Shown here: piece by piece, positions 2,450 to 43,515 of the stretch | Layout: each line of letters opens with the position of its first letter | Numbering within the stretch: the first letter of the stretch is position 1 | DNA from: an uncultured bacterium | GTDB lineage: Bacteria; Oederibacteriota; Oederibacteriia; Oederibacteriales; Oederibacteriaceae | DNA: 64,000 nucleotides | Direction of reading: 5' to 3' | Assembly: GCA_965112635.1 (NCBI GenBank) | Contig: OZ218778.1 | Location: forward strand, 640,001 to 704,000 | Program-made: the position numbers and the translations under genes | The notes under the pieces: generated by a model | The model's database searches: none | Told to the model about the DNA's origin: nothing | Seen by the model: the letters and a program-made list of their open reading frames with translations, nothing else

Positions 2450-2582
2450 AATGTCTCCTTAACAGGCTGCTGAATTATTTAAATAATAGTCCTTTAGCAG
2501 CCTGTTACACGAGTTCATACTCGCATGCATGAGCATGTCGCAAAGCCAAAGGGATTTGCGATGCTTTCAACTACACTAACTC

Positions 2583-2653
2583 TGCCAAAAATGCTTTTTG
2601 GCATAAAACCATCCGAACAGAAACGCATTATCACAATAATGCGGATGGTTTTA
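2583..2653 (+). repeat. Copy A of a short structured element with a variable segment complementary to the flanking site
   Basis: tgccaaaaa-tgc-tttttggca hairpin, taaaaccatccg, AGAAACGC, AT-rich spacer, then cggatggtttta (reverse complement of the variable segment). Confidence 0.7.
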
Positions 2654-2956
2654 CCACAACCCCAGCTGGTTCTTGGCTTCCTCGCTGGCCATGGTGGCCG
2701 GATCCCACGGCGGGTCGAACACGATTTCCACGGTCGCGCTTTTGACCCCCGCCACGCTTTCCGCGGCATTGCGTGCGTTTTGCTGGAATTCCGGAGCAAT
2801 GGGGCAAAAAGGCGTGGTCAGGGTCATCTTGACGGCCACATCGCCCTCATCGTTCACCTTGACCTCATAGACCAGCCCCAGGCTGACGATGTCCAGATGG
2901 AGTTCGGGATCAACGACCTTTTTCAGGGCTTCCCTGACCTGTGCCTCGGTGACCAT
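2651..2956 (-). CDS. sufT: Fe-S cluster assembly protein SufT / DUF59
   Basis: VVDPELHLDIVSLGLVY, MTLTTPFCP, VFDPPW motifs; last gene of the suf cluster. Confidence 0.9.
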   Translation of the reverse strand: MVTEAQVREALKKVVDPELHLDIVSLGLVYEVKVNDEGDVAVKMTLTTPFCPIAPEFQQNARNAAESVAGVKSATVEIVFDPPWDPATMASEEAKNQLGLW

Positions 2957-2958
2957 GT

Positions 2959-3408
2959 TCAGCCTCCGTTCTTTCCTTTTTGGCCGTAGTTTTCTATCCC
3001 CTGCTTGAGAGTATGCCAGGCCAGGGTGACGCATTTGACCCGGCCCGGAAATTTCCTGGCTCCCTTGAGCGCCTCGATATCGCCGTCCCAGCCCGGGATA
3101 TCCTGGCCCTGCATCATTTGCTGCAGTTGTTCAATAAGACCCAGGGCCTCCTTAAGTTCTTTGCCTTTGACCATGTCGGTCATGATGGAACCGGACGCCT
3201 GGCTGATGGCGCATCCCCGGCCGCTGCAGGATATCTGTTCGATGCGCCCGTCCTTGAGGCTGGCCTGCACCGAGAGGGTGTCCCCGCAAAGGGGGTTGTT
3301 GCCCTCCGCGGACAGGTCCGGCCGGCTCAGCCGCTCGTGGTTATGCGGCTCCTTGAAATGGTCCAGGATGACCTCCCGATAGAGGTCCGTGATCTCTTGG
3401 TCAGCCAC
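2959..3408 (-). CDS. sufU: SUF system NifU-family sulfur transfer protein SufU
   Basis: LYREVILDH, NPLCGD, GCAISQAS, RVKCVTLAW. Confidence 0.95.
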   Translation of the reverse strand: MADQEITDLYREVILDHFKEPHNHERLSRPDLSAEGNNPLCGDTLSVQASLKDGRIEQISCSGRGCAISQASGSIMTDMVKGKELKEALGLIEQLQQMMQGQDIPGWDGDIEALKGARKFPGRVKCVTLAWHTLKQGIENYGQKGKNGG

Positions 3409-29125: not shown

Positions 29126-29260
29126 TGGTGCGAGGGGGGGAGTTGCCTTACGGTCATCGCTCTTTCGAGTGATGCCTCCAGGCTGGGCTCGCTGTCCACC
29201 CTCCGGGTGCCGGACAGCTCCGCCCTTCAACTCCCCCAAGCAAACGCTTCCACGTTTGCC
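29126..29260 (-). repeat. tRNA-Leu-linked palindromic element with a duplicated tRNA 3' end
   Basis: 29126-29145 repeats the tRNA-Leu 3' end (CAACTCCCCCCCTCGCACCA, one C shorter); 29226-29237 is its inverted copy; three internal or adjacent hairpins. Confidence 0.75.
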
Positions 29261-29308
29261 TATTATGACTCGCTAATCTTTTGTTTTGCTGATACTTCAC
29301 CAATGTAA

Positions 29309-29392
29309 TGGTGCGAGGGGGGGGAGTTGAACCCCCACCCGGTTAAGGACTGGATCCTAAGTCCAGCGCGTCTGCCATTCCGCCACCCTCGC
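29309..29392 (-). tRNA. tRNA-Leu(TAG)
   Basis: GCGAGGG acceptor stem, CTGGA-CTTAGGA-TCCAG anticodon arm, variable arm, GGGGG-TTCAACT-CCCCC T-arm, CCA. Confidence 0.97.
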
Positions 29393-29460
29393 TTAGGCCT
29401 GCAAAAATATTATAGCGCGTTTCCTTACAGGCCTAAGCGCATCGAAAAGCTATTCGATGC
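29390..29460 (-). repeat. Copy B of the short structured element, at the tRNA-Leu 5' junction
   Basis: Plus strand cgcttaggcctg...GCGTTTCC-tta-caggcctaagcg-ca-tcgAAAAGCtattcga. Confidence 0.75.
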
Positions 29461-29540
29461 TGCAACCAATTACTTTCAAACCTAATATTACTTTACCTTT
29501 GAGCAGATTTACACTCCAGATTATATCCATGAAGGCTCAT

Positions 29541-43301: not shown

Positions 43302-43376
43302 TGGAGCTGGCGGCCGGGATTGGACCGGCGACCTATCGATTACAAATCGATTGCTCTACCACTGAGCTACGCCAGC
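43302..43376 (-). tRNA. tRNA-Thr(TGT)
   Basis: GCTGGCG acceptor stem, ATCGA-TTTGTAA-TCGAT anticodon arm, CCA; T-loop reads TCCAATC. Confidence 0.93.
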
Positions 43377-43515
43377 TCTTGCTATTTTATAGATAGAGCG
43401 TTTCCGCTCAAGAGCTGGCGTATCGGAAAAGCCATTCCGATACGTCCAGCCAAAACTTAATAATGCGCTTCCTCTCAGACGCTGGCGTACCGAAAAAGCC
43501 TTTCGGTAAGCCAGC
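43368..43515 (-). repeat. Copies C and D (tandem) of the short structured element, at the tRNA-Thr 5' junction
   Basis: GCGTTTCC-gct-caagagctggcgta-tcggAAAAGCcattccga and GCGCTTCC-tct-cagacgctggcgta-ccgAAAAAGCctttcgg. Confidence 0.8.

Follow-up and report, generated by a model that had tools for sequence, protein, structure and literature searches.

A family of about 70-nt interspersed DNA palindromes with conserved loops and locus-specific stems, found in a single Oederibacteriaceae genome

The stretch of DNA analysed here (64,000 nt, hereafter ‘the window’) spans positions 640,001 to 704,000 of contig OZ218778.1 (assembly GCA_965112635.1), from an uncultured bacterium of the family Oederibacteriaceae. 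It carries four copies of a short non-coding element: a tandem pair, units C and D, at the gene for tRNA-Thr(tgt); unit B at the gene for tRNA-Leu(tag); and unit A beside an open reading frame (ORF) for a SufT-like protein. Because both tRNA genes lie on the minus strand, units B, C and D are upstream of them in the tRNA sense. An initial reading of the window without database searches (hereafter ‘the sequence-only reading’) had described these copies as a constant scaffold joined to a variable segment of exactly 17 nt that is complementary to its own chromosomal flank, and had likened them to guide-directed mobile elements. All four copies are present where that reading placed them, and the exact complements that it gave for C, B and A, the imperfect pairing of D and the position of A at the sufT stop codon were confirmed (Table 1). 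Also present are the three degenerate copies of the tRNA 5' end that it listed at 43368, 43441 and 43507, and C and D are indeed tandem units.

Throughout, units are described in one ‘sense’ orientation: a first inverted repeat (H1), the 17-mer (containing arm1), the core GGAAACGC, the AT box ATTATT, 6-20 variable AT-rich bases and arm2. A unit is about 70 nt long and consists of two abutting inverted repeats, H1 and then H2. H1 is an 8-bp stem (6 bp plus two closing pairs made with the first 2 nt of the 17-mer), and its loop of 3-6 nt has GCT inside. H2 is a 12-bp stem that starts from nt 3 of the 17-mer, with no linker to H1; its loop of 12-42 nt (18-32 in most copies) opens with ARM-GGAAACGC-ATTATT, the last 3 nt of the 17-mer (AGA, AAA or AGC) being the start of that loop. 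The 17-nt segment is thus not a single one: its first 2 nt close H1, the next 12 belong to the H2 stem and the last 3 to the H2 loop. Likewise, the hairpin that had been defined by AAAAGC is instead C.AAA...GCT...TTT.G with a covarying stem. In an information profile, H1 shows the conserved C.AAA / TTT.G; the arms are partly conserved at their ends (YRCRM at the foot, C.YTTG at the top) and free at their centre, the consensus of the stem foot being just YRCRM / KYGYR. The conserved part is the loop, in which a nearly invariant core is followed by A-T-T-A-T-T-A and the sequence past the AT box is free. About 40 bits of conserved sequence stand at fixed spacing. In unit D, the third degenerate copy of the tRNA 5' end (43507-43515) is able to pair with the 17-mer across H1.

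Table 1. Coordinates of the units, their parts and associated genes (window positions unless marked ‘genome’; z, DNA folding z-score).
Feature	Position	Strand	Remarks
Unit C	43368..43442	-	Upstream of and overlapping tRNA-Thr(tgt); 76 bits; complement 14/14; z -6.9
Unit C, core	43398-43405	-	Written GCGTTTCC; in sense orientation GGAAACGC
Unit C, 17-mer	43406-43422
Unit C, H1	43423-43440		With closing pairs 43421-43442
Unit C, loop	43382-43397
Unit C, arm2	43368-43381		Includes tRNA nt 1-9
Unit D	43438..43515	-	Degenerate upstream tandem unit; 40.8 bits; complement 7 nt, exact; z -3.1
Unit D, core	43465-43472		GGAAGCGC
Unit D, 17-mer	43473-43489
Unit D, H1	43490-43506
Unit D, arm2	43441-43451		Decayed
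tRNA-Thr(tgt)	43302-43376	-	Sole UGU tRNA-Thr gene found in genome; nt 1-9 form outer part of unit C arm2
Unit B	29390..29460	-	Upstream of tRNA-Leu(tag); 60.1 bits; exact complement 12 nt, 15 with one wobble; z -3.6
Unit B, H1	29442-29457
Unit B, 17-mer	29425-29441
Unit B, core	29417-29424
Unit B, arm2	29390-29404		Includes tRNA nt 1-3
tRNA-Leu(tag)	29309-29392	-	Paralogous to tRNA-Leu(gag) locus (genome 2691 kb), which has its own compensated unit
Unit A	2582..2653	+	Antisense to both neighbouring genes; 44.6 bits; complement 12/12; z -7.4
Unit A, H1	2585-2601
Unit A, 17-mer	2602-2618
Unit A, core	2619-2626		AGAAACGC
Unit A, loop	2627-2641		Folds into own small hairpin
Unit A, arm2	2642-2653		Ends on stop codon (2651-2653) of SufT-like ORF
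PF01883 (SufT-like) ORF	2651-3034	-
RAYT-like Y1 genes	genome 1374-2210, 1522713-1523549, 1775656-1776492, 2734115-2734948, 2873600-2874436
IS110 copies	genome near 793-1218, 1090362, 1453319, 2022695		Two pairs, 92% identical between pairs

The genome, a single contig of 2.876 Mb with 51% G+C, was searched for further copies by a looser pattern scan, an nhmmer profile and a covariance model made from five equal-length copies. The covariance model finds 36-38 units at 31 loci and nhmmer about 37; the shared scaffold with its locus-matched segment is therefore a genuine multi-copy family, of which the four copies described at first are members and not the total. The complementarity itself is real and well beyond chance. 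The motif GCGYTTCY occurs 408 times in the genome, and when the 20 nt after the motif were compared with the 45 nt before it, the longest exact complement was no more than 8 nt at 397 of these sites and 9-14 nt at 11, all 11 of which show the full architecture. Across 33 model-aligned copies, pairing holds in 89.9% of cells (62.6% in shuffled controls, none of 500 of which reached the observed value) and falls to 41-44% when the partner is slid by one column, and changes on both sides occur at 12 of 12 H2 pairs and six of seven H1 pairs. The 33-copy alignment was fitted to the covariance model and is to that extent biased toward structure; the raw GCGYTTCY counts are independent of alignment. 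The units are not four guides but a lineage-restricted family of interspersed DNA palindromes.

Within the searches made, the family was found in this genome alone, the nearest genomes compared being of the same phylum at closest. Among 98 other genomes of the phylum, the covariance model with stricter filters gave no convincing match, the two weak singletons having E values of 5e-4 and 5e-3. Scans with a 19-nt degenerate core pattern, which diverged cores would escape and from which the genome's own records were left out, returned 45 single matches in a set of species-representative genomes, 77 in metagenome contigs and two in viral contigs. The best metagenome match scores 22 bits, as against 35-87 bits for the 29 best copies of the genome itself, the weaker degenerate copies of which score 21-28 bits. 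The scattered outside matches (two in the phylum, two viral and the single pattern matches) are probably chance-like and are treated as such.

The pairing is of DNA type. The H2 cells of the 33 copies comprise 355 Watson-Crick pairs, 5 G-T, 6 A-C and 19 other mismatches, and H2 is perfect (12/12) in 17 of them; in the acceptor stems of the genome's own tRNAs, 18 G-T pairs stand against 5 A-C. A helix selected as RNA should tolerate wobble on the transcribed strand, and H2 combines strong covariation with no wobble preference in either strand. A comparison of the tRNA-Leu(tag) and tRNA-Leu(gag) loci, which are 76-79% identical over 183-200 nt including the flanks (blastn; 80% mean column identity in a 233-column alignment), leads further: H2 differs at five adjacent positions and H1 at several, and every change is compensated on the other arm. 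To judge from such paralogs, the stems are actively kept complementary in place. Nor are perfect stems simply a sign of youth, since perfect-stem copies deviate from the consensus of core and AT box at 0-4 of 14 positions (by reading). As to the two tRNA-Leu genes themselves (window 29250-29480 and genome 2691111-2691325, flanks included), their similarity suggests a fairly recent duplication with anticodon change.

These data bear directly on the possibility that the units act as structured RNA leaders or trailers, in which the helix would sequester the tRNA 5' strand, a ribosome-binding site or the region after a stop codon, its 20 stacked bp (8+12) serving as a processing (RNase III-like) or stability signal. 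Variable stems, conserved loops and strong covariation would suit such a role, as would the two ORFs at which arm2 covers the ribosome-binding site and start codon, the unit that takes up a whole intergenic gap in a co-directional gene pair, leaving 3 nt and 0 nt on its two sides, and the possible promoters upstream of some units. Nevertheless, we consider it very unlikely, given that wobble is enriched on neither strand, that units occur in both orientations relative to transcription and as nested and tandem copies, and that single-copy tRNA genes would probably suffer from a perfect 12-14 bp helix on their 5' acceptor strand. Comparison with Rfam is also negative: at the gathering score the window yields four tRNAs and nothing else, and at E up to 1 seven unit-bearing loci yield tRNAs and one chance snoRNA match only, in keeping with the sequence-only reading, which did not recognise the motif as a named family. 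A limited text search of the literature returned just unrelated papers (for the motif sequences, apparently primer matches), from which absence from print is not claimed.

Three further candidates at the level of RNA or peptide were rejected. A hammerhead-like core (CUGAGAGGAAAC compared with CUGANGA...GAAAC) has the wrong G/A order, no stem II and no Rfam match; no complement was found between the core and rRNA or RNase P RNA; and for a leader peptide in the GGCGATYGAAGTTTAA subfamily, the conservation is accounted for by arm and flank.

All units are intergenic, with the ends of protein genes taken from our own crude ORF caller and scorer: 20 loci lie in co-directional gaps (14 units facing downstream and six upstream), seven in divergent and five in convergent gaps. 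The two ends of a unit are placed very differently. At 13 of the 31 loci a gene end is no more than 10 nt from the H2 foot, which overlaps it by 1-9 nt at nine; for the H1 foot the count is one of 31 (Fisher p 4.6e-4); under uniform placement, 5.1 such H2 feet would be expected (p about 2e-4). The 13 gene ends are seven tRNA ends (six 5' and one 3'), three start codons and three stop codons, and a tRNA gene is found within 200 nt at 13 of the 31 loci. This gene-end asymmetry of the H2 foot is the least well explained fact about the family. A clear replication-strand bias was not seen among the 31 units, 20 of which are on the leading and 11 on the lagging strand, similar to the bias of genes. 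By cumulative GC skew, the origin is at about 770 kb and the terminus at about 2.26 Mb. The leading strand encodes roughly 80% of genes, and the leftward replichore contains the window, at a distance of about 70-130 kb from the origin. Additionally, units about 90 nt upstream of tRNA-Lys(ttt) and tRNA-Val(cac) are followed by a similar leader (genome 9012-9102 and 168386-168478) containing a covarying hairpin (CTCGGC-TTTCA-GCCGAG / CCCAGC-CTTCG-GTTGGG) and then TACGCT, for which Rfam gave no match at E up to 1.

The AT box, or a TATAAT/TATTAT-like hexamer in the loop (TATAAT in unit B), ends 7-17 nt before the tRNA +1 at six tRNA loci; the best -10 boxes of element-free tRNAs in this genome end 5-16 nt upstream (several others 26-56 nt). 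Since an RNA helix of 12-14 bp over the 5' acceptor strand would be expected to compete with the 7-bp acceptor stem and to be harmful, tRNA-facing copies probably start transcription inside the loop, arm1 being left out of the RNA as a DNA-only segment. A promoter of the Bacteroidetes type (-33/-7) was rejected, TAnnTTTG being present in just 5-7 copies and the rRNA promoter being canonical.

Such placement raises the question of whether the units are cis-acting DNA control modules that evolved in place, as promoters or operators of a regulon rich in tRNA genes. H1 would then be a protein-binding palindrome and GGAAACGC-ATTATT the recognition sequence plus -10 region. The flanking inverted repeat, extending over the -35 region and the first 12 bases of the transcript, would form a cruciform dependent on supercoiling or a hairpin bound by protein. 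The conserved bits at fixed spacing speak for this, as do the DNA-type pairing, the structure kept in the paralogous tRNA-Leu loci, the downstream gene faced at 21 of 32 loci, the AT box 10-17 nt ahead of +1 at the six tRNAs (where arm2 would be roughly +1 to +12) and the two units, at genome 528693 and 848721, whose arm2 coincides with the ribosome-binding site and start of the following ORF. However, at 11 of the 32 loci, including A, the unit either is directed at the 3' end of a convergent gene or is antisense to the co-directional genes around it; the most canonical copies have no -35/-10 pair at sigma-70 spacing (by reading), the consensus copies showing -35-like TTGARM and -10-like CATTAT 7 nt apart; and the half-sites of H1 covary at an unconserved position, which protein recognition does not require. 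Nested and degenerate tandem copies are also hard to explain as regulation, and rRNA and most tRNA genes have ordinary promoters without a unit. Control modules evolved in place are thus a possible but unlikely account. The sequence-only reading had itself offered a cruciform or RNA switch as its alternative, and a DNA hairpin or cruciform at gene ends fits the DNA-type pairing at least as well as a guide does.

Which of the two arms is original can be judged at tRNA-Thr. The 5' end of this gene, GCTGGCGTAGCT, is also seen elsewhere in the phylum, in genomes where the gene has an ordinary TTGACG-17-TATAAT promoter about 35-40 nt upstream and where an upstream complement of at least 12 nt was found at none of 29 loci (best 9 nt, at one AT-rich locus). 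Since the same tRNA 5' end thus occurs elsewhere without an upstream complement, arm2 is native and arm1 derived at tRNA loci, and the view that the tRNA side of the pairing is native was borne out.

In several copies, however, both arms travel with the unit. A complete unit that we call b (H1 AGAACAGCTRGTTCT, arms CAAACTCTCTTG / CAAGAGAGTTTG) is present in two host units that are unrelated to each other (753 kb and 2011 kb), in each directly behind the host core, and is followed at both by ACGC-ATT. Paralogs of the hosts (1082 kb and 2019 kb) have near-identical flanks without the 64-nt unit b insert, and nothing resembling its arm2 is found in the recipient loci. Similarly, unit C and the units at 2419 kb and 1580 kb align across the entire unit and have the arm2 common to their subfamily. 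GCAAGAGCTGGCGT is common to C and the 2419-kb unit, at which GCGT alone is native (the complement of the tRNA-Arg(tct) 3' end); the 1580-kb unit is followed by CCCAAG, resembling the tRNA-Arg(tct) complement CCCAGG after the 2419-kb unit, a likeness noted post hoc. In a third subfamily, three loci have arm2 and the adjoining AAGTTTAA in common, and the copy at 1439805 has an inherited outer arm that does not pair with the local flank. Because both arms travel in these copies, the ‘target’ of the sequence-only reading is often part of the repeat rather than an independent chromosomal site.

Tandem arrays occur at at least nine loci, and in them each unit is bordered by its H1 foot on one side and its H2 foot on the other. 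There is evidence that the units multiply, as their proposed mobility implied: copies are nested, paralogous loci differ and bases of a former flank are carried along. The travelling arms point to copying of a folded unit with a ragged 3' border, with junctions that would form at short identities. In one arm subfamily, a short motif (A)GTTCAAAGTTCAAGGTY lies 0-25 nt upstream of H1 at genome 1082429, 2146109, 2840032, 1435555 and 1183604, and once downstream of arm2 (1082429); this motif may represent an additional module or a site at which units prefer to land.

The same observations allow the proposal of a guide-directed, programmable mobile element to be weighed. In it, the 12-nt arm would act either in the form of single-stranded DNA or through a small RNA that starts at GCGUUUCC. 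By pairing with a chromosomal sequence that matches it, the arm would direct a trans-acting enzyme to insert a copy beside that site, and drift of the arm would open new targets. Frequent tandem arrays at the same target are what a guide-matching copy would give; the arm subfamily ACGCCAGC lies beside similar sequence at the tRNA-Thr 5' end, the tRNA-Arg(tct) 3' end and 1580 kb, and CATAAA at two stop codons and one start codon; and the native tRNA side and the strong bias of the H2 foot to gene ends agree as well. Against it, arm2 of unit b is absent from the empty paralogs of both hosts and so does not match the recipient, the inherited outer arm at 1439805 is unpaired with its flank, target duplication is not consistent, no recombinase, TnpB or reverse transcriptase (RT) match is linked to units, and the copies of the insertion sequence (IS) IS110 target another repeat. 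We therefore regard a guide-directed element as decidedly unlikely. That the arm is causal, the element picking its site, or being written against it, by pairing with a gene end (preferably of a tRNA) and being mobilised by an enzyme outside the recognisable transposase families, also seems unlikely, though a little less so. Of the mobile reading as first put forward, then, the multiplication of units and the match of one arm to native gene ends stand, whereas the arms often travel, the pairing is of DNA type and the analogies with insertion sequences fail.

Those analogies, with IS200/IS605 end pairing and the IS110 bridge RNA, fail because the Y1 genes and IS110 copies of the genome are tied to a different repeat and because a common flank motif or consistent flanking tetranucleotide was not found around the units. 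The five RAYT-like Y1 genes (278-283 aa) are flanked by inverted GGGGTCAnnTCTTGA(C)A repeats, none by units; the four IS110 copies are inserted inside repeats of the GGGGTCAnnTCTTGA type (TCAAGATGTGA / IS / TGACCCC), and this triangle of REP, RAYT and IS110 is unrelated to the units. No Y1 gene or IS110 copy adjoins a unit, and the one IS200-type Y1 element has its own hairpins and ends unrelated to the units. Genome searches for TnpB and RT gave no match; a search for Y2 (IS91) was also empty, but its control likewise matched none of 14 well-known genomes, so that absence is not shown. Five tyrosine recombinases are encoded, two of them of XerC/D size, no search having been aimed at an integrase of the integron type. 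The longest direct repeat between the two flanks of a unit averages 4.9 nt (4.2 nt in cross-locus controls), the high values being mostly from tandem arrays.

Several other origins were considered and rejected. A crude array finder gave no array that would support a CRISPR-like mini-crRNA; a tRNA 3' fragment or att-site duplication is not supported, H1 being unlike a T arm; priming by a retro-element finds no RT match; and a rolling-circle (IS91-type) origin, hinted at by CTTGAGA, finds no Y2 match, which is weak evidence given that the control genomes also gave none. In a candidate composite transposon, two inverted units (791 kb and 792.7 kb) would enclose a 445-aa ORF, but by reading this ORF has an HxHxQ-type motif and does not resemble a transposase.

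The genome also contains other repeats with nested hairpins. One, of the form AATAAACTTCCCCGCCCTAAAGGGCGGGGTTTTCG..., occurs at genome 168677-168800, 744054-744128, 225219-225281, 616040-616083 and 1183593-1183628, and is uninterrupted at about five loci (e.g. 1572264, 1888751 and 14603); several copies carry in their hairpin loop a palindromic insert of about 29 nt (of the type CGCCCTCA...TGAGGGCG). The same insert is found in the unit at 1183604, where it separates arm1 from the core. Hairpin-in-loop nesting recurs in the genome. Another inverted-repeat family, AACAGGCTGCTGAA ... TTTAGCAGCCTGTTAC, occupies window positions of about 2440-2545 directly left of unit A, followed by a second small hairpin, and is also present at genome 1562285, 2509805 and 141452. 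The contig ends (1-3900 and 2872000-2876006) carry near-identical Y1 genes and repeats, and may be a true repeat or a circular-assembly overlap.

We tentatively favour, with somewhat less than even confidence, a family of non-autonomous, duplicating DNA palindromes whose stems are kept up by template switching and whose promoter role is incidental. Such an element would multiply as a whole folded unit, with the 5' foot of H1 and the 3' foot of H2 as the limits of each copy, a few extra bases of the old flank being taken along at times. Copies would land in intergenic DNA with the H2 foot flush with, or slightly overlapping, a gene end, above all a tRNA end. Templated correction within a strand, by quasi-palindrome template switching, would hold the arms in perfect Watson-Crick complementarity; a free arm would follow its partner wherever the partner is constrained as a gene end, and this would produce the locus-specific, ‘guide-like’ complementarity. 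In tRNA-facing units the AT box of the loop lies at the usual -10 position of tRNAs in this genome, and transcription would start inside the loop. Some probability is also reserved for explanations that we have not thought of.

Several points weigh against this favoured account. Template switching needs a partial palindrome to act on, and by itself it leaves the first match of arm1 to 7-10 native tRNA bases unexplained. Flush H2 feet and the preference for tRNAs are not predicted by simple random insertion and drift, and the partial conservation of the arm ends (YRCRM...C.YTTG) could mean descent, target preference or functional constraint. H1 stems differ widely between copies, so that the family is not simply young, and neither an enzyme nor a parent element was found for the units; a target-site duplication is not consistent and, in 22 copies, no consistent repeat was seen beyond arm2. 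With regard to promoters, a sigma-70-like -35/-10 pair at 16-18 nt spacing is present in unit C alone (TTGAGC-16-TAAAAT, formed by loop and stem top), and the rRNA operon promoter is a canonical TTGACA-17-TACAAT without a unit.

Should template switching be all that keeps the stems perfect, the family would display this mutational process in nature over long times, and would show how a selfish palindrome comes to sit on, and perhaps drive, tRNA genes. If, instead, the arm helps to choose the site, a very small element would embody a new principle of target choice, its enzyme would be worth seeking and a causal arm would make it a programmable, structure-defined bacterial mobile element of an undescribed kind. 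Either way, this isolated lineage holds several families of nested-hairpin repeats, and the 31 loci are practical markers for strain comparison.

Among known systems, quasi-palindrome template switching is a replication error in which one arm of an imperfect inverted repeat is copied onto the other, yielding perfect Watson-Crick pairing with no need for selection at the RNA level. It accounts for the upkeep of the stems but, being a process and not an element, not for the origin, conserved loop or spread of the units. Integron attC sites are likewise defined by a folded single strand, with stems that differ between copies; however, they have conserved boxes (R''/R', GTTRRRY) at the stem foot, a free loop, cassette arrays and an integron integrase, whereas the units have a conserved loop, a free foot and no cassette arrays, and precede tRNAs or lie in ordinary intergenic gaps. 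The ends of IS200/IS605 and the bridge RNA of IS110 resemble the units in setting a constant folded scaffold beside a short flank-complementary segment. In IS200/IS605, 4-5 nt pair, hairpins are conserved, insertion follows a fixed short target and a replication-strand bias is seen; the units, also in comparison with PATE, have variable H1 stems, no common flank motif and a strand ratio (20:11) like that of genes. In IS110, the non-coding RNA is well over 100 nt long and encoded next to the recombinase, and a single target is common to all copies; the four copies in this genome sit in a REP-like repeat away from the units. Miniature elements of the MITE type with outward promoters and hairpin transcripts (e.g. 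the Correia elements of Neisseria) are small, non-autonomous hairpin units beside genes and can supply promoter boxes, but their terminal inverted repeats are common to the whole family and their target duplication is of fixed length; the arms of the units are locus-specific, with no consistent duplication and no parent IS found. REP/BIME elements with their RAYT are also short intergenic palindromes, present in tens to hundreds of copies in either orientation, often clustered, found also inside operons and with secondary effects on transcripts. REP stems, however, are conserved in sequence with a 5' GTAG-type motif, whereas those of the units vary from copy to copy with compensation around conserved loops, and the RAYT genes of this genome have GGGGTCAnnTCTTGA repeats of their own. 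Conserved stems are the usual mark by which interspersed palindromes, REP elements and MITEs among them, are identified; the family described here inverts this usual rule, its loops being conserved and its stems locus-specific and partly made of the neighbouring gene end.

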